The notes beneath the pieces were generated by a model. That model saw only the letters and a program-made list of their open reading frames with translations, ran no database searches and was not told the origin of the DNA. The position numbers and the translations under genes are program-made. From Candidatus Latescibacterota bacterium (lineage in GTDB: Bacteria > Latescibacterota > UBA2968): a DNA stretch of 64,000 bases. The first letter of the stretch is position 1. Each line of letters starts with the position of its first letter. Location: positions 1,888,001 to 1,952,000 of the forward strand of contig OZ220741.1 in the NCBI GenBank assembly GCA_965116885.1, given 5' to 3'. This document shows positions 6,493-13,506 of this stretch, in pieces.

Positions 6493-7590
6493 ATGAAGAT
6501 TACGGATGTCAAATATCATCGTTTGCGCTATCCCGTGACTGAGAAGTTCGGAAATTCTTTTGCGTGGATTACGGAGCGGTCATCTATTCTGGTGGAGATT
6601 TCTACCGATGCGGGTATTACGGGATGGGGACAGGGGGCGGGGTCGATTGGTGAGTCGGATATTCAGCGGCATGTGATCGGGCAGGATCCGTTCGATTGCG
6701 AAGTGATCTGGAATGCGCTGAACAATTCGGGGAGTCTGAGGAATGTGGGCGCGACCAGTGGCGTGGATATTGCATTGTGGGATATTATGGGTAAGGCGCT
6801 TGATGTGCCGGTTTATCGCCTTCTGGGGGGCGCATTTCGGGACCGTATCCCGTGCTATGCCAGCGGGTTGTTCAGGAAGGACAGGCCGGATAATACACAG
6901 GCGTTGATGGATGAGGCCAGGGGATATGTGGATCAAGGTTTTCCCGCGATGAAGATGAAGGTTGGGCTTGGGAAGGCTTACGATGAGCAGAATGTGGCTG
7001 CTGTGCGGAAGGCGATTGGCGATGATATTCTTTTGTGCGTGGATGCAAATTTGGCCTATGATGTGGGTACGGCGATTGAGGTGGGGCGCAGGATGGAGGC
7101 GTACGATCTGTTCTGGTTTGAAGAACCGATTTCGAGAGATGATGTGGCCGGGTATATAGAAATTAAAAGGGCGCTCAAGATGCGGATTGCGGGATGCGAG
7201 GGTTTGCAGGGGCGCTGGGCATTTCGGGAGTTTATTCAGCGACGGGCGGTGGATATTGTGCAGCCAGATATTGCGATTGTCGGCGGGTTTACAGAGGCGA
7301 GAAAGGTTGTGGCGATGGCCAGTGCCAATTATATTCCGGTTATGCCGCATATGTGGGGGGCAGTCGTTGGTCTCGCCGCTACCCTGCACTGGCAGGCGTC
7401 GATGCCAGATGCGTCCGGTTCTGTGAATCCAGTCCCTTCTTTTTTTGAGTGTGATATGACGGAAAATGGGCTTCGAACAGCGTTGTCTAAAGAGCCTATT
7501 TTGCCCGTGGATGGTTTTCTTGCGGTTCCCCAGGGTCCCGGGCTGGGGATTGAGATTGACCGGGATGTTCTTGAGAGATATTCGGTTTGA
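6493..7590 (+). CDS. Mandelate racemase/muconate lactonizing (enolase superfamily) enzyme
   Basis: DIALWDIMGK, KMKVG, VDAN, WFEEP, GCE, QPD, GPGLG motifs. Confidence 0.93.
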   Translation: MKITDVKYHRLRYPVTEKFGNSFAWITERSSILVEISTDAGITGWGQGAGSIGESDIQRHVIGQDPFDCEVIWNALNNSGSLRNVGATSGVDIALWDIMGKALDVPVYRLLGGAFRDRIPCYASGLFRKDRPDNTQALMDEARGYVDQGFPAMKMKVGLGKAYDEQNVAAVRKAIGDDILLCVDANLAYDVGTAIEVGRRMEAYDLFWFEEPISRDDVAGYIEIKRALKMRIAGCEGLQGRWAFREFIQRRAVDIVQPDIAIVGGFTEARKVVAMASANYIPVMPHMWGAVVGLAATLHWQASMPDASGSVNPVPSFFECDMTENGLRTALSKEPILPVDGFLAVPQGPGLGIEIDRDVLERYSV

Positions 7591-7618
7591 CGCGGCGTCT
7601 TTTCAAAGGAGCGATGCG

Positions 7619-8485
7619 ATGGACGAGATGCTGAGATGTTTTGCGGAGAACGGGTATGTCGTGGTGGAGGGGGCGCTTTCACCGGAGGAGGTGGCGGCGA
7701 TTAACGATGGGATTGATGCGGATGTGGCCGCGAACCCGAAGGAATGGGAGCCTGGGCCGCGTCCGGGTCATATAGCGGTGGGCTGCAGGGCGCCGGAGTT
7801 GATGCACAGGACAGAGGCGCTGGATGGCCTGGTTCACCATCCGTCGGTTGCGCCACTGGTGCGCCGCATTCTCGGAGCGGGTGTTCAGTTTAGCAGTCTG
7901 AGTTTTTTGCGGCGCGAGGTGTGTGCCGCCGATCCGCCAGAGGATATTGACGGCGGCGATCCGCTCTGTCTTTCGCGGCAGTGGCACCGGGAATACAACG
8001 GTATTGTGGAGGGTGCGGATAGGAATGCGTTTTTTGCTCCGGCGATACAGGTGATTTACTATCTGGACGATGTGGATGCCGGGTCCCACTGTACGAGCCT
8101 TATTCCAGAGAGTGCCGAGACCAAGCGTCAATTGCCCAAGACGCGGGAGGGGAAATCCGGATGGGGCGAGGGTGTTTTGCGAATTGACGATGGTGAGACG
8201 GCGTATGTGGATCCGGATAAGCCGATGTGGACAGATTCTTTTGGTCGCACAAATCCCCGACGGATCGGTCGGGTCGATGTTCACGCGCCAGCGGGGTCTG
8301 CTGTGATGTTCAATATTGCCAGTTATCACTGCGGAACTGTCCGGCAGACGCAGCGGATTCGGCGCACGGCGCATTTGATGTATCGGCAGCCAGATCCGAT
8401 ATTCTCGCGGCACGCACTGGGTCCCGATTGGGAGAGTGTGGCGGCGTTTAGAGCCGCGCTGCCAAAGCGACCAGCGATTGGATAG
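7619..8485 (+). CDS. Phytanoyl-CoA dioxygenase (PhyH) family protein
   Basis: FAENGYVVVEGALS start, WHRE (HxE), IYYLDD, AGSAVMF..YH; AAGGAG RBS. Confidence 0.85.
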   Translation: MDEMLRCFAENGYVVVEGALSPEEVAAINDGIDADVAANPKEWEPGPRPGHIAVGCRAPELMHRTEALDGLVHHPSVAPLVRRILGAGVQFSSLSFLRREVCAADPPEDIDGGDPLCLSRQWHREYNGIVEGADRNAFFAPAIQVIYYLDDVDAGSHCTSLIPESAETKRQLPKTREGKSGWGEGVLRIDDGETAYVDPDKPMWTDSFGRTNPRRIGRVDVHAPAGSAVMFNIASYHCGTVRQTQRIRRTAHLMYRQPDPIFSRHALGPDWESVAAFRAALPKRPAIG

Positions 8486-8515
8486 AGTGAATAGAGGCTA
8501 ATTGTTATGTGTGTT

Positions 8516-8573
8516 GTAGGGGACGGCCCCCGTGCCGTCCCGTCATCGCGGCATGATTAAAGCCGCGATCCAG
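8516..8573 (+). repeat. GTAG-type REP palindrome followed by a second palindromic repeat
   Basis: GTAGGGGACGGCCCCCGTGCCGTCCC then GTCATCGCGGC-n-GCCGCGATCCAG; same pair at 31644-31705. Confidence 0.8.
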
Positions 8574-8619
8574 GAGGTTTTTGCTGACTACTAACCGCTA
8601 ATTGGCATTTGGAAATAAG

Positions 8620-8819
8620 ATCCGAAAAGAGACGCGGAGCCTGAAGGCTTTCTGGCTGTGAGTCTTTGTTTGCTCTGAGGTTTGAAGCTCAATGGTCTGG
8701 TGCTTTGCCGGACGTTATGAGCGTCACCCCCTCAAGAGGATGGCTTTTACAGATACCATGGTCTGGGCTATGCTCCGTCACCGAAGCAGTCGCACTTGCT
8801 CCCCTGTCTCCTTTCGGAT
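8620..8819 (-). ncRNA. Candidate ~200-nt structured RNA downstream of the DIP1984-like gene
   Basis: 5' AUCCGAAAGGAGAC pairs with 3' GUCUCUUUUCGGAU (one G-U); internal UGCUUCG-GUGA-CGGAGCA GNRA hairpin, CAUCCUC-UUGA-GGGGGUG hairpin, A/C-rich unpaired tract. Confidence 0.55.
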
Positions 8820-8825
8820 GGTTGA

Positions 8826-9365
8826 TTATTGTTCGTCTTGAAAGGCTACTATGGCGTCAAAAGATGCTGCTCGTAGCTTTCTGTTTAACGCCCGAAAAGC
8901 CAACCGCACACGTTCAAGGTCCTGGACGCTGTCGGGGTATGACAATTCGTTGGGTTCTACAATGTCGCGGTCTTCTTTGTAGATTACCCGCTGGTATGCC
9001 GCATCCACGACTTGCGTGTGTAGTTCGCCGATTTGTACATTCAAACCTTTTCGCAATTCCAGCGCCTCGTTGAGGTTGATGGTGTCGCCATCATGTTCCA
9101 TCTGGTGCTGAAAATTGGTCTGCTGAATGGCACTGTTGAGCTTGCGCCGTTTGTATTCCAGCGCTTTGATCTGATCGCGTACTTCAGTGGTGTCAAACCC
9201 GGGACTGGGGCGATATTGGCCCTCTTCATCGCGATTGAAAAATGACCGATTGCGATTTTGCCTGGTTTCTGACTGGCAATCTTTCAGGGTTTTGATTCTG
9301 GCATCGTATTCAGCCCTGAGTTCCAGAGCTTCATAGAGGTAGAGTTTGTTGTTTTCGTCTGGCAT
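8826..9365 (-). CDS. DIP1984-like helical/coiled-coil protein (179 aa)
   Basis: LYEALELRAEY..RIKTL and the repeat LNEALELRK, KLNSAIQQTN; strong GGAG RBS before ATG 9365; the ORF-track extension is antisense to the sulfatase. Confidence 0.7.
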   Translation of the reverse strand: MPDENNKLYLYEALELRAEYDARIKTLKDCQSETRQNRNRSFFNRDEEGQYRPSPGFDTTEVRDQIKALEYKRRKLNSAIQQTNFQHQMEHDGDTINLNEALELRKGLNVQIGELHTQVVDAAYQRVIYKEDRDIVEPNELSYPDSVQDLERVRLAFRALNRKLRAASFDAIVAFQDEQ

Positions 9366-9491
9366 GTTTTCTCCTTCCTTTCTCCTCCCGTCATTTATGC
9401 ATTTATGCATCGCTTTGGTGCGGTATCGACTCTGACAAAGCCGAAAAGATAAAAGATTCAGAGAATGTAAAATTTTTTTAGGGAACAGAAT

Positions 9492-10832
9492 ATGAAACAA
9501 CCCAATGTAGTGTTTATCGACTGTCACGATTTGGGTGATTGGCTCGGTTGTTATGACCGGCCTGATGTATCGACGCCCAATCTGGATCGGTTGGCTTTTC
9601 AGGGTGCCCGGTTTACGCAATTTATCGCGACGGCACCTATTTGTATTCCCAGTCGCGTTGGCTTGTATTGCAGCCAGATGCCGCACATGATTGGTGTGTG
9701 GGGACAATTTCCCTATGCGGATGATGCTGTGTGCATGGCGCGTTATTTTCAGGATGCGGGCTATGAAACGGTGCTGAGCAACCGGTTGATGATTTTGAAT
9801 GATCCATCCTGGGCGGGTTTTTTGCGTGTGATAGAGGGGGAGGATGATGTGGAAGTGTTGGCAGAGCGTTTTTTGCGAGAAGAAGCACCGTCTATTGAGT
9901 GTCCCTTTTTTTTGCAGGTCTCTTTCTCGGAGGTACATAGACCTTTTGGGCTGGATTACGATCCAGAGCTTGCGGAGAGGATGGTTGTGCCTCCGGATCT
10001 GCCCGATTGTTCGGAGGTGCGCAAAGATCTCGCCGCGTTGTGTCGGCAGATTGGGGCGTTGGATAAAAAAGTGGGACGGATTCTGAATGCACTTGATGAT
10101 TGTGGGCTGGCCGATGAGACCGTTGTGGTGTTTACTACCGAACACGGTGTGGCGACTGCGCGGGCAAAACACACGCTTTACGATGCGGGTATCCGAACGA
10201 CGTTGCTTATGAGGTACCCGTCTGAGATTGCCGCTGGAACTGTGTATGGTGATTTGATTAGCAACATGGATCTGTTGCCGACGTTGATGGAGTTGTGCGG
10301 TCTGGAGGAGCCGGATGGTATTCTGGGGCGGAGTTTTCGGGGGTTGTTTTCCGGTGCGGGATGGGCTGGCCGGTCTGTGGTGTTTAGCGAGCAGACCTGG
10401 GGGCGGCGTGCTGGGAACTGGTATTACACGCCAATGCGGTGTGTTCGGTCAGATCAGTTCAAGCTGATCCGCAACTTTGCGCGGGTGCCAAATTATGTCG
10501 ATAATGGGTGGGTGAATCGTTTTCAGAACAGACGAGAGGTTGTTCAGGCGCTTTTTTCAAAACCGGCACCGGAACGGGAGCTTTACAGTTTGGCAGACGA
10601 TCCGTATGAGTTGAACAATGTTGCAGATGATCCGCGTTTTTCAAGGGTTCGCGATGATTTGGAGGGGCAATTAACCGCGTTTCTCGAGGAGACAGAGGAT
10701 CCCATTTTGATGGGGGTTGTGCCGAATAGAGAAGGTCATCCAGATGTTCCGCAGTGGATTAAACAGCCAGACGGCTCGTTTCTGTTGGAGGCGGATCGGG
10801 AGATTTATCACTCAGAGCAGCCTTTTGATTAG
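9492..10832 (+). CDS. Sulfatase (formylglycine-dependent)
   Basis: PNVVFI, TPNLDRLA, CIPSR (CxPxR), ELYSLADDPYELNN. Confidence 0.93.
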   Translation: MKQPNVVFIDCHDLGDWLGCYDRPDVSTPNLDRLAFQGARFTQFIATAPICIPSRVGLYCSQMPHMIGVWGQFPYADDAVCMARYFQDAGYETVLSNRLMILNDPSWAGFLRVIEGEDDVEVLAERFLREEAPSIECPFFLQVSFSEVHRPFGLDYDPELAERMVVPPDLPDCSEVRKDLAALCRQIGALDKKVGRILNALDDCGLADETVVVFTTEHGVATARAKHTLYDAGIRTTLLMRYPSEIAAGTVYGDLISNMDLLPTLMELCGLEEPDGILGRSFRGLFSGAGWAGRSVVFSEQTWGRRAGNWYYTPMRCVRSDQFKLIRNFARVPNYVDNGWVNRFQNRREVVQALFSKPAPERELYSLADDPYELNNVADDPRFSRVRDDLEGQLTAFLEETEDPILMGVVPNREGHPDVPQWIKQPDGSFLLEADREIYHSEQPFD

Positions 10833-10844
10833 AGGAGTTGTGAC

Positions 10845-12344
10845 ATGAATCTGGAATCCTACTGCGCAGGGGAGCCACTTGAGGTTGGTACGGAAACCGT
10901 ATTGCTGATCGACAATGCCACGGTGGAAGACCGCTGGGGGGTAAGTCGTGTGTTGAATGTGCCGATTAAGGATCCGCACAACCCCGTGCTCATGCCCGAC
11001 AGGCCGTGGGAAGATTCGGTGGGTCAGCAAAATGTGATTTACGACGACGAAGCCGGCGTGTTCCGCATGTGGTATGCCGGGACCGATTGGAACGCGTGGA
11101 TGCACCAGTTCCGCTTCAAAGACTGGAAGGCGGAGCGGCACGGGTATCCCTATTTTGTGTGCTATGCCGAGAGCTTGGATGGGGTACACTGGGACAAGCC
11201 GATGTTGGAGGGCAAGCCGTACGGGCAATATGAGAAGACCAATGTGGTGGTTACGGGACAGCAAAAGGCCCAGGGGGTGCGCGTGATGTGGAACCCCCTC
11301 GGTGGCGTGCAGCAGAGCCGTTTTCTGATGACTTACAAGGACAATCTGGCCGAGGGATATGGGTGTCTGTGTCTGGCTTATTCGGATGATGGGATTCACT
11401 GGCGGGAGGATCCGGCGAACCCGGCTTTCATCGGTCTGCGGGACACATGGCAAAACATGGTGTTCGACCCTGTCCGGGAGCGCTGGTTGATGTTCACGCG
11501 GCCCGTGTGTACCGCTGGCGTTGGGGATGTGTCGGGTGGACCGACGGAGCACAACTACAAGCGCCGGACAGCGGTGATGGTCGGGGAGACGCCGTATGAT
11601 TTTGGCCAGCCCCGGGTGGTGATGTGGCCGGAAGAAGTAGATGATCCGGATATCGACCACATGGTGGTTTCTCGGGTGGGCAGCCATTTCATCGGTTTTG
11701 TCGGAATGATGGGGCCGCCGCCGCACATGGCCTTCCATCTGCATCTGGCGTTTAGCAGCGATGGCCTGCACTGGAATATGTTGCCCGACCGGTCTGTATA
11801 TCTTCCCCATGGCGGATCCGACGCCTTCGACTCGGGTTCTACCTCGGGAGCCGGAGGCATTGTGAGCGTGGGAAATACGGATTTTATCTACTATCGCGGA
11901 TCCCGCCACGGCCAGGCACAGGGCAACAGGAACAATGTCTCGGGTATCGGCCGGGCGCAATTTCTCCAGGATCGATTCGTCGCGCAGATGGGTGCGCACA
12001 CGGGTGGCTTTCTGCTCACCCGCGAAATGGTTGTTGCCGCACCGGAACTGATCGTCAATACGACCGTGGCCGACGGTTATAACAGCGATCCGACCACGGC
12101 GATTGTTCCGCCCGAATTCGCTGTCGAAGTGTTGCGTTTCGGTGAGGGCGGTGCCCCGAGTCCCGTGCCCGGGTTCACTCTTGCCGACTGCACCACACAG
12201 GCTGTTGACCTTGTCGAGCACAAAGTGACGTGGAAAGACAAGCAGGATATGGCCGAACTCGTGGGCACGCCTGTGTTCCTCCGCTTCTATCTCAAGAATG
12301 TGGGTCTCTATTCGCTGCGGTTTCGCGATGGAGGATCTGGGTGA
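10845..12344 (+). CDS. Putative five-bladed beta-propeller glycoside hydrolase-like protein
   Basis: NPVLMPDRPWE, FRMWY, YAESLDGVHWDKP, AYSDDGIHW, FSSDGLHW repeats; AGGAG RBS. Confidence 0.75.
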   Translation: MNLESYCAGEPLEVGTETVLLIDNATVEDRWGVSRVLNVPIKDPHNPVLMPDRPWEDSVGQQNVIYDDEAGVFRMWYAGTDWNAWMHQFRFKDWKAERHGYPYFVCYAESLDGVHWDKPMLEGKPYGQYEKTNVVVTGQQKAQGVRVMWNPLGGVQQSRFLMTYKDNLAEGYGCLCLAYSDDGIHWREDPANPAFIGLRDTWQNMVFDPVRERWLMFTRPVCTAGVGDVSGGPTEHNYKRRTAVMVGETPYDFGQPRVVMWPEEVDDPDIDHMVVSRVGSHFIGFVGMMGPPPHMAFHLHLAFSSDGLHWNMLPDRSVYLPHGGSDAFDSGSTSGAGGIVSVGNTDFIYYRGSRHGQAQGNRNNVSGIGRAQFLQDRFVAQMGAHTGGFLLTREMVVAAPELIVNTTVADGYNSDPTTAIVPPEFAVEVLRFGEGGAPSPVPGFTLADCTTQAVDLVEHKVTWKDKQDMAELVGTPVFLRFYLKNVGLYSLRFRDGGSG

Positions 12345-12381: not shown

Positions 12382-13506
12382 TCAAGCCCCCTGACGTTGT
12401 AGCCCCAACGTCAATATGTTTATCGCAGCATTGTGGTCTCTGTCCGTCGTATAGCCACACGCTTTGCAATGATGCACACGCTGAGAAAGTGGTTTCTTCT
12501 CTCTATGTCCGCATGCAGAGCAATCTTGTGACGTGTGCTTAGGATCAACGGCCTTGAATCCAATACCAGCCTCTTCCGCTTTGTATTCGAGACAGTGCCG
12601 AAACAATGACCACGCTACGTCTGCTATTGATTTAGCCAATCGCCTGTTCTTCTGCATCTCTTTTACGTCTAATTTCTCGACGGCAATGAAACTGTGACGA
12701 TTGACCATTTTTCTTGATGCTTGATGGGCAAAGTTATGTCGTTTGTTACGGATGCGCTCATGCACTCTACCAGTGACTTTACGACGCTTTTCTCTTACCG
12801 CGTCGGTCTTGGGTCTTTTTTTCACCGCGTCCCATTTGCGCTGTGCTTTGGCAAGAGCCTTTTCCTCTTTGCGAAAGAATCTCTGATTCTCTATTTTCTG
12901 TCCGTCACTGGTCACAGCAAAGGACGTAAGACCCACATCAATGCCAACAGCAGAACCATTGTTATTTTTCCTGTCATTGTCGCCGATATCGCAAGAGATA
13001 GACGCGAACCACTTGCCTGTTGCTGTGCGCGTGATTGTGCAAGACTTAGGGGTACCCTTAAGCGGTCTGTGCTGGACAACACGAATACAGCCTATACTGC
13101 CCAATCGCAAGCCCTTGTTGTCCAATCGGCAACCATTGGCAAACTGAGGATAGGTGATAGAATCATAGCGATTCTCATTCTTGTATCTGGGAAAGCCTGC
13201 TTTCTCGCCTGTCTTTGCTTTCTCTTTGAGACGGCGAAAGAATCCTTTGAATGCCAAATCTACTCTTGCTGACACTTGTTGCAATACCTGGCTATATACT
13301 TGCTTGAAAGCGGTGTGCTGTTGCTTCAGCATTGGTATTGTTTTGGTCTGGTCATATTGCGAGAGGGACTTATTCTCATTTTTCCATGCTTGTATTCTCG
13401 CACAGACAAGTTGGTTGTAGAGAATGCGGCATTGGTCAATATGCGCCAGCAAGATATTCTCTTGCTTTTTGGTTGGGCGCAATCTGTATTTGAATGACTT
13501 AACCAT
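12382..13506 (-). CDS. tnpB: RNA-guided endonuclease TnpB
   Basis: FKYRLRPTKKQ HTH, GIDVG RuvC-I, IAVEKL RuvC-II, TSQDCSACG..CKACG Zn finger, DRDHNAAINI RuvC-III. Confidence 0.95.
   Translation of the reverse strand: MVKSFKYRLRPTKKQENILLAHIDQCRILYNQLVCARIQAWKNENKSLSQYDQTKTIPMLKQQHTAFKQVYSQVLQQVSARVDLAFKGFFRRLKEKAKTGEKAGFPRYKNENRYDSITYPQFANGCRLDNKGLRLGSIGCIRVVQHRPLKGTPKSCTITRTATGKWFASISCDIGDNDRKNNNGSAVGIDVGLTSFAVTSDGQKIENQRFFRKEEKALAKAQRKWDAVKKRPKTDAVREKRRKVTGRVHERIRNKRHNFAHQASRKMVNRHSFIAVEKLDVKEMQKNRRLAKSIADVAWSLFRHCLEYKAEEAGIGFKAVDPKHTSQDCSACGHREKKPLSQRVHHCKACGYTTDRDHNAAINILTLGLQRQGA

Follow-up and report, generated by a model that had tools for sequence, protein, structure and literature searches.

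The 64,000-nucleotide stretch of Candidatus Latescibacterota DNA analysed here (assembly GCA_965116885.1, contig OZ220741.1, positions 1,888,001 to 1,952,000; hereafter the window) carries on its minus strand a gene for a protein of the DUF6847/DIP1984 fold and, directly behind that gene, a structured RNA of about 180 nt. We conclude that the gene and the RNA almost certainly form a functional unit, and that the protein probably binds the RNA directly. An earlier note on this DNA, made by a model from the letters of the sequence, had proposed a stand-alone module of a protein and a non-coding RNA (ncRNA) at this place. Our analysis strongly supports that proposal: the RNA lies beside essentially every intact homologue of the gene, and no third gene conserved beside the pair was found.

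Gene and RNA are linked across phyla and decay together

A homologue scan, taking one genome per species, gave 79 loci. With groups taken from the record titles, these cover Latescibacterota, Desulfobacterota, Dehalococcoidales, Acidobacteriota, Spirochaetia, Gemmatimonadota, phyla of the Planctomycetes-Verrucomicrobia-Chlamydiae (PVC) group, Nitrospinota, Nitrospirae, Chromatiaceae and others, including three archaeal bins. In nearly all of them the sequence past the stop codon opens with the same core. From an alignment of 97 distinct RNAs (A3) we built a covariance model, R1, and ran it on both strands of the window and the 79 loci (482,813 nt). It returned 74 matches, a single one in the window and in each of 73 of the 79 homologous loci, and every match sits on the gene strand directly 3' of the gene. 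In the six loci lacking a match (L063, L071 and L078-L081) the gene is truncated or the edge of the contig is reached. The earlier note had made its proposal hinge on a conserved and covarying structure downstream of homologous genes, and this is what the homologues have.

The linkage was also read in reverse, by searching metagenome and viral contigs for a 17-mer of the RNA core. This gave at least 121 loci, at least 119 in metagenome contigs and two in viral contigs. At least 71 of them pass an extended regular expression; three of the latter were judged to be chance matches, leaving at least 68 real RNAs. Among the matches listed, 63 of the 68 real RNAs have the gene 10-48 nt upstream and three have too little upstream sequence, and the other 50 of the 121 loci are chance matches to the 17-mer. 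The two matches in viral contigs were rejected as chance.

Of 151 genomes that we examined in the phylum, 28 are matched by the protein profile and 24 by R1, with 23 in common. A full-length or near full-length gene is present in 21 genomes, all of which have the RNA: it is whole in 20, and in G139 it is cut by the contig end 68 nt after the gene. Four genomes have only the first 36-49 codons left and the RNA is gone, G070 retains the 3' half of the RNA alone, and G087 holds fragments of both. Remnants of gene and RNA decay together, as a unit.

Several occurrences deserve separate mention. The archaeal-bin contigs with the module are short, 2.3-3.1 kb (L036, from a Thermoplasmata bin, L016 and L064); L036 shares the RNA and its flanks with the Desulfatibia contig L022, so the archaeal occurrence may reflect mis-binning and not transfer. 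Two copies of the module stand on one 17-kb Alkalispirochaeta contig (L060, L062), with identical downstream sequence, and two divergent copies, 54-56% identical to the query, are present in one Verrucomicrobiota bin (L053, L056).

The RNA is closed, structured and covarying

The outer frame of the RNA is as the earlier note described it. A 14-bp terminal stem starts 6 nt past the stop codon (8806-8819 pairing with 8620-8633, one of the pairs being G-U), the GGAGC/GCUCC helix follows further in, and together the 14-bp stem and the 5-bp helix enclose about 170 nt. With its lineage-specific extension the RNA spans 8620-8819; P1, the outermost helix of the consensus, is extended by at least 4 bp in 31 of 112 distinct RNAs. 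The minimum free energy is -74 kcal/mol (z = -3.57), and none of 200 shuffles folds as well.

The fold was read from A3 together with a mutual-information scan, and is numbered on the 184-nt RNA (Table 1). Two helices, P1 and P2, close the molecule and covary wherever they vary. The GUGA hairpin of the GNRA type that had been predicted is real, and its stem, P3, supplies the top mutual-information pairs. The "two or three further hairpins" of the earlier note are better described as a hairpin, P4, and a helix pair, P5/PK2, each in a pseudoknot. The pseudoknots are probable and unproven, since PK1 and P5 each rest on a single covarying pair, the other pairs of PK1 being invariant. The pseudoknotted core contains invariant single-stranded nucleotides.

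In A3, standard pairs occupy 93.2% of 3201 cells, compared to 84.0% in shuffles, and none of 500 shuffles reaches 93.2%; controls in which the partner strand was slid are 32-46% paired. Compensatory changes on both sides were found at 23 of the 33 pairs. G-U pairs recur in the helices (UG in 20-22 of the 97 sequences at two P3 pairs), which bears out the strand argument made earlier and fits an RNA carried on the gene strand. A divergent clade of 12 members retains P1, P2, P3, a P4-like and a P5-like hairpin and, by eye, an analogue of PK2 with a different sequence.

Table 1. Position and support of the features of the module (coordinates, those of the window; nt, numbering of the 184-nt RNA)
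Feature	Coordinates	Strand	RNA numbering	Support or remark
DUF6847/DIP1984-fold gene, stop codon included	8826..9365	-		ATG at 9365, stop TAA 8828-8826, 179 aa
Structured RNA core, 184 nt, P1 5' strand to P1 3' strand	8628..8811	-		R1 174.2 bits, E 6e-51
P1 extension (8 bp, lineage-specific), 5' strand	8812..8819	-		partner 8620-8627
P1 extension, 3' strand, then U-rich stretch	8620..8627	-		pairs with 8812-8819
P1	8806..8811 with 8628-8633	-	1-6 with 179-184	99.5% paired (leans high, see text); 4/6 pairs change on both sides
P2	8798..8802 with 8636-8640	-	10-14 with 172-176	100% paired (leans high, see text); 2/5 pairs change on both sides
P3 hairpin, 7 bp, GNRA (GUGA) tetraloop	8771..8788	-	24-30 with 35-41	7/7 pairs change on both sides
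First probable pseudoknot (H-type), PK1 (CAG/CUG) crossing P4	8741..8767	-	45-71	
PK1			47-49 with 60-62	one covarying pair (AU 91, GC 4), others invariant
P4 hairpin			54-57 with 68-71	4/4 pairs covary
Second probable pseudoknot, P5 crossing PK2 (GACG/CGUC)	8711..8729	-	83-101	
P5			consensus 81-83 with 91-93	1/3 pairs covary; window row shifted by one column (by eye)
PK2			consensus 86-89 with 98-101; window RNA 87-90 with 98-101	4/4 pairs covary
Unpaired A/C-rich periodic tract, about 9 anchor triplets (mostly A-G-C) every ~8 nt	8641..8707	-	105-171	spacing, Fourier, invariant columns
990-bp block (promoter region, gene, RNA, tail)	8490..9479	-		58 nt instead in same-genus genome G013

The unpaired tract has a fixed register

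The tract begins after a conserved CCGG and runs for about 65 nt up to P2, with a composition of 37% A, 27% C, 22% G and 14% U; the mutual-information scan found no covarying pairs inside it. Its near-invariant columns in A3 are A-G-C or A-N-C anchors, whose C falls near nt 110, 118, 125, 132, 140, 149, 157, 165 and 173, the final anchor extending into the 3' strand of P2. Among 102 distinct RNAs of the main clade, RGC triplets (R, purine) number 6.9 per tract, compared to 2.6 in shuffles. Successive RGC triplets are spaced by 7-9 nt in 275 of 597 cases (46%, vs 13% in shuffles), and a further 145 of the 597 spacings measure 15-17 nt, or two periods. The Fourier power of C and A is at its maximum at period 8. 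Spacing and Fourier analysis thus confirm the recurrence of purine-purine-C every 7-8 nt that had been noticed in the window. TRF found no tandem repeat array in 8620-8819: the anchors alone recur and the spacers, about 5 nt each, do not. The register is kept while the spacers drift.

In the divergent clade, whose proteins are 32-42% identical, the anchors are UUAC/UGAC with a spacing of about 7 nt, and the power peaks at 7-7.5. At seven positions (T26, R63, Q118, Y129, R154, N161 and R165) the protein is conserved inside each clade but not from one clade to the other. The anchor motif and the period switch together with the protein clade, which would fit recognition of the anchors by the protein.

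The protein is a duplicated helical bundle of the DIP1984 fold

The gene boundary at 9365 given in the earlier note proved correct. The product scores 29.6 bits against Pfam DUF6847 (PF20935), above the gathering cut-off of 27. Against NCBIfam DIP1984_fam (NF038048) it reaches 24.3 bits and its close relatives 21-22 bits, below the curated cut-off of 70; by NCBI's rule the window protein is a distant subfamily outside the DIP1984 family. An AlphaFold2 model made from 18 homologues (pLDDT 83.8) predicts a fold of four long helices with two small beta hairpins, in which residues 31-58 form a disordered, Arg-rich loop. This model matches PDB 3kdq, a C. diphtheriae protein of unknown function, with Z 13.8 and rmsd 2.8 over 151 of 152 residues in VIA (runner-up, Z 8.8), and with TM 0.72/0.84 in Foldseek, which places it in the DIP1984 fold; 3kdq is its sole clear structural relative. 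The description of the product as a DIP1984-like helical protein is borne out by the DUF6847 score and by the structural match.

The two L.EAL.LR repeats seen previously occupy residues 10-17 and 98-105. One half of the protein can be aligned with the other, these motifs included, which points to an internally duplicated helical bundle, and both halves of window-type proteins (G120, G144 and others) match positions 59-140 of the DUF6847 profile. Conserved Arg, Lys and Asn residues sit on helices H2 and H4 and on the second beta hairpin.

Searches beyond close relatives gave little. At E<=1e-3 we counted 678 homologues, with identities of 62-96% among the 120 matches listed. An exhaustive profile search gave 206 representatives at E<=0.001; with only these, the subfamily is compact, and its profile falls short of canonical DIP1984. 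No longer or fused form of the protein was found, which is weak evidence. PHROGs gave only a weak match to a family of unknown function, a sequence profile search of the PDB a single chance match (E 0.36), and BFVD uncharacterised phage proteins, none of which reached E<=0.001. The Atlas search returned the protein's own cluster and an unconfirmed 'Siphovirus Gp157' lead at 0.94.

Canonical DIP1984 genes are followed by a closed RNA of another family

A PF20935 search of other genomes gave eight full-profile DUF6847 genes (L213, L214 and L225-L230), and tblastn with one canonical gene gave 368 plasmid records annotated 'DIP1984 family protein' or 'septicolysin': 340 from Acinetobacter and 17 from Enterococcus, with Picosynechococcus, Streptomyces and Mycobacterium also represented. 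In each of the 12 canonical loci that we opened, the gene is followed by about 140-200 nt without annotation. Compared to shuffles, of which no more than 7 in 100 do as well, a long-range closing stem stands out in seven of eight genome loci and two of four plasmid loci. The stems of E. faecium and Picosynechococcus fail this comparison, as 46 and 66 shuffles in 100 do at least as well as the best stems that the script found; in E. faecium a bulged 6-bp stem is seen by eye instead. Anchored on a shared GGCG motif, nine of ten loci have a P1 of 9-14 bp.

When eight canonical RNAs were aligned, their P1 (9 bp) and P2 (5 bp) were 99.1% paired, compared to 60.2% in shuffles and 24-39% in slid controls, with both-side changes at all 14 pairs; P1 helped choose the RNA ends and is partly circular in this respect, and P2 was not used. 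The loop between the two helices reads GGC-GA opposite UGA. Kink-turns consist of a 3-nt bulge followed by tandem G-A and A-G pairs between two helices, and by its letters the canonical loop fits this consensus and may be kink-turn-like. The corresponding loop of the window RNA (AGG opposite GC) does not fit it.

Run with filters off on the canonical RNAs, R1 gave noise only. We therefore rejected the idea that the two kinds of RNA are homologous: the architecture is shared, the family is not. Rfam scans of the canonical loci gave nothing relevant. Closed 3' RNAs of the canonical kind were seen in L213 (locus 1972-2137), L214, L227-L231 and L233, including an 8.7-kb A. baumannii plasmid and a Picosynechococcus plasmid. 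Perfect T-arm-like hairpins, with a 5-bp stem and a UUCGAGU or UUCAAUU loop, occur in the L213 and L214 RNAs and in those of L072-L076. Cultured carriers include Picosynechococcus PCC 7117, and Deinococcus radiodurans was positive as a control.

The window RNA belongs to no described family that we found

The earlier note had suggested a comparison with Rfam, and the window RNA matches no family of Rfam 15: at permissive thresholds, nothing beyond chance matches of at most 16 bits and one unrelated tRNA came out of scans of the window region and of 10 diverse loci. No published description of the window RNA was found in a literature search that left subscription journals and supplements outside. 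The papers listed for septicolysin and 3kdq deal with plasmids or annotation, what was found for DUF6847/DIP1984 is unrelated, and none of it treats this RNA; searches with the RNA core sequence as text, and with septicolysin together with small RNA, gave no match. Plasmid GQ377752 is named in PMC3358182.

How the module might work

We propose that the RNA would be the 3' part of the gene's own transcript, the two forming one transcription unit, with P1 and P2 clamping both ends. The 5' half of the RNA would fold as a compact core, made of the GNRA hairpin and the two pseudoknots, while the 3' half would be held unpaired by its A/C-rich composition and present about nine anchors in a fixed register of about 8 nt. 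Copies of the pseudo-dimeric helical bundle, with its basic H2 and H4 and its Arg-rich loop, could dock side by side on these anchors, the folded core serving as a nucleation or capping site, so that each transcript might hold a defined multimer of its own product. By titrating or scaffolding the protein, the RNA could act in a toxin-antitoxin-like or infection-sensing manner. Such multimeric docking is suggested by likeness to the reading of triplets by TRAP and HutP and to the phased assembly origin of tobacco mosaic virus. Because the pair has a patchy distribution, has spread horizontally, is often found decayed and lies among toxin-antitoxin and defence genes, we read it as an autonomous accessory module. 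The full chain, a self-contained ribonucleoprotein with several protein copies docked on the periodic tract, is the reading that we favour; it is put forward tentatively and may well need revision. Rather unlikely, and more speculative, is its extension to the whole DIP1984/DUF6847 superfamily, 'septicolysin' genes included, as the protein half of an ancient and unrecognised ribonucleoprotein class. In such a class every gene would have a clamped, structured RNA of its own behind it, and a helical protein would polymerise in a 7-8-nt register on the unpaired tract of its own transcript, in the manner of a nucleocapsid or of TRAP, with a role in sensing infection or stress or in addiction.

Several observations weigh against the ribonucleoprotein proposed here. 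The structure was derived from the same sequences that were used to score the pairing, and the pairing percentages of P1 and P2 lean high because the 3' regular expression that collected the A3 sequences constrained the 3' strands of these helices. The argument from co-variation of protein and anchors is weak, since one motif switch is a single evolutionary event, and in the canonical RNAs an AC periodicity of 6-9 nt beats shuffles in just four of eight. The protein is acidic overall (pI 5.2), with H2 and H4 net-basic; no recognised RNA-binding domain was found in it by Pfam or by structure search, PADLOC gave no match to it, and window-type proteins were absent from the 72,556 plasmids and 50,697 phages searched. 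A run of at least four T follows the RNA at just 42 of 112 loci. Finally, two RNAs appear to be orphans, L092 with 820 nt and L189 with 300 nt of upstream sequence without the gene, so that the RNA might act alone. In L189 the 3' strands of P1 and P2 are mutated, and the RNA sits after a small open reading frame (ORF) with, by eye, an RNxxxH-type HEPN-like motif.

Three other explanations were considered. The RNA could be a cis-acting 3' untranslated region that stabilises, terminates or autoregulates the DUF6847 mRNA, for instance by blocking 3' exonucleases or as a terminator whose loop is large and branched, in which case no stable ribonucleoprotein would form and the tract would just stay unpaired. 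That it always lies in cis, 10-48 nt past the stop codon, agrees with this idea, as do the failure to find a separate promoter between gene and RNA and the U-rich sequence after P1, where, besides the T-runs just mentioned, the T fraction of the 10 nt past the stem is 0.44, compared to 0.24 at a control position 100 nt further. However, stability or termination would call for far less than a molecule of some 180 nt, kept across more than 10 phyla, that has two probable pseudoknots and in which unpaired nucleotides are near-invariant; the register of the anchors persists despite the drift of the spacers; and the RNA tolerates an insertion of 60-250 nt between the stop codon and P1 (in L004, L039, L070 and L072-76). 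We consider a purely cis-acting role unlikely. A main actor in its own right, be it a ribozyme, a sensor of a ligand or tRNA, or a decoy, with the protein as chaperone or regulator, would account for the pseudoknotted core with its invariant single-stranded nucleotides, for the T-arm-like hairpin seen in RNAs of the L072 clade and in the canonical L213 and L214 RNAs, and for the two RNAs without a gene. Yet no Rfam ribozyme or riboswitch matched even at permissive thresholds, ARAGORN found no tRNA or tmRNA genes in window positions 7000-11000 or in L072, L074, L076, L213 and L214, and the protein, 60-96% identical across phyla, is conserved as much as the RNA and lost together with it. An RNA acting chiefly by itself is, in our judgement, quite improbable.

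The pair might also belong to a mobile element, the RNA being a guide, bridge or template for DNA rearrangement or reverse transcription. Like the ncRNAs of retrons and of defence-associated reverse transcriptases, and like the omega RNAs of TnpB and IscB, it is a structured RNA beside or from the 3' end of its partner gene with clamped ends, which recall the a1/a2 of retrons; moreover, the pair is horizontally spread and forms a 990-bp block that is present in some genomes and absent from others. Unlike those systems, the module is single-copy (R1 gives just one match in the 5.56-Mb genome), and the empty site of G013 has no visible target-site duplication or terminal repeats. RVT_1 reverse transcriptases were not found in the 98%-complete genome (the control was positive in 3 of 14 genomes), nor did any reverse transcriptase turn up in the neighbouring ORFs. 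Pfam, Foldseek and VIA matched the protein to no nuclease or recombinase, and the anchor spacers measure just about 5 nt. A role in DNA rearrangement or reverse transcription is, in our view, very improbable.

Comparison with known systems

The earlier note had offered a type III toxin-antitoxin-like system as one label for the module. In type III systems (ToxIN, CptIN and TenpIN) the RNA antitoxin is a tandem array of direct repeats of about 35-45 nt, upstream of the toxin, a ToxN/AbiQ-type endoribonuclease that the RNA neutralises. The module resembles them as a self-contained, horizontally mobile pair of a protein and a cis-encoded RNA in an accessory or defence context, and in having several, here putative, binding units per transcript. 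It differs in that the RNA lies 3' of the gene and is one closed fold with anchors of 3-4 nt in place of a tandem array, and in its DIP1984-fold protein, which matches 3kdq alone and gave no ToxN/AbiQ-type match in Pfam or PADLOC. As a statement of membership the label fails; a toxin-antitoxin-like logic is possible.

TRAP, acting on the trp leader, and HutP, acting on hut mRNA, are beta-rich rings that read evenly spaced triplets in a 5-7-nt register in the leaders of other genes. Their targets represent the closest known logic: an unpaired tract with a 3-nt motif at fixed spacing and non-conserved spacers. The window system departs from it with a helical protein, a register of 7-8 nt and a tract enclosed in a closed RNA behind the protein's own gene, the binding being our inference here. 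Ro60/Rsr with Y RNA, and OLE RNA with the Oap proteins, are gene-linked bacterial ribonucleoproteins. They too have a structured ncRNA with paired termini next to a dedicated protein gene, but the window RNA has no Rfam match, its protein has another fold, and its distribution is that of a patchy accessory and not lineage-wide.

Canonical DIP1984 proteins of Acinetobacter, Enterococcus and Picosynechococcus plasmids and of Deinococcus share the fold and superfamily with the window protein, and a closed 3' RNA (136-190 nt) whose P1 and P2 covary. Their RNA is of another family, with the GGC-GA/UGA loop, a weaker NAC periodicity and, in some, T-arm-like hairpins, and compared to them the window-type protein is a variant with a duplicated half-domain.

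The RNA described here adds a structured class of about 180 nt, with two probable pseudoknots and a periodic single-stranded platform, that is neither in Rfam 15 nor in the literature searched. The obligate RNA partner gives a first functional handle on a widespread family of proteins whose function is unknown. On A. baumannii and E. faecium plasmids, canonical members go under the annotation 'septicolysin' and have been discussed in terms of virulence; a helical bundle with an RNA partner differs greatly from a pore-forming toxin, and if this partnership held superfamily-wide the cytolysin label would be wrong. The fixed-register tract may be a rare natural case of sequence-phased protein assembly on a bacterial RNA, and the cultured carriers make the hypothesis directly testable.

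Genomic context

In the window the module is flanked by a convergent gene for a PhyH-family dioxygenase and a divergent sulfatase gene. Its distribution is patchy even within the genus, where 10 of 19 genomes have it. G052 (L204) and L081 have an internal deletion of 8503-9250, and both carry an extra 847-nt gene at the upstream boundary of the module (window 9480) that by eye has the look of an AbiEi-type antitoxin. It seems that this intergenic site is a small, variable islet.

Elsewhere, the commonest neighbour is an AAA_14/DUF4143 ATPase (13 of 80 loci), in variable position and strand. Among 72 flanking ORFs scanned, 36 have a Pfam match, and 19 of these 36 belong to toxin-antitoxin, nuclease, transposase, helix-turn-helix (HTH), CRISPR type III or Wadjet families. 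TacA/TacT pairs adjoin the module in Spirochaetia, and HTH genes are also adjacent. In the PVC group, a conserved XRE-type HTH gene lies upstream in L050, L051, L053, L054, L056, L057 and L059, and a conserved protein of about 380 residues with no Pfam hit is encoded downstream in L049, L050, L051, L053, L054, L057 and L059, beginning some 30-70 nt past the RNA in L049, L051 and L053. This arrangement may be a lineage-specific, three-gene version of the module.

A scan of 8400-9600 for sigma-70 promoters and terminators was uninformative, giving one promoter-like site on the wrong strand and no terminators. Downstream of the RNA and inside the 990-bp block, two further G+C-rich hairpins lie at 8490-8619 on the minus strand; they are conserved in Latescibacterota relatives only and may be the true transcription stop. 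Just upstream of the ribosome-binding site of the DUF6847 gene, at 9392-9410, the 8-nt unit CATTTATG (plus strand) is repeated 2.4 times and could be an operator or promoter element. At a distance of 3 kb from the module, and unlinked to it, a 374-aa ORF (12382-13506, minus strand) with a C-terminal zinc ribbon resembles by eye TnpB/OrfB proteins, presumably of the IS200/IS605 family.

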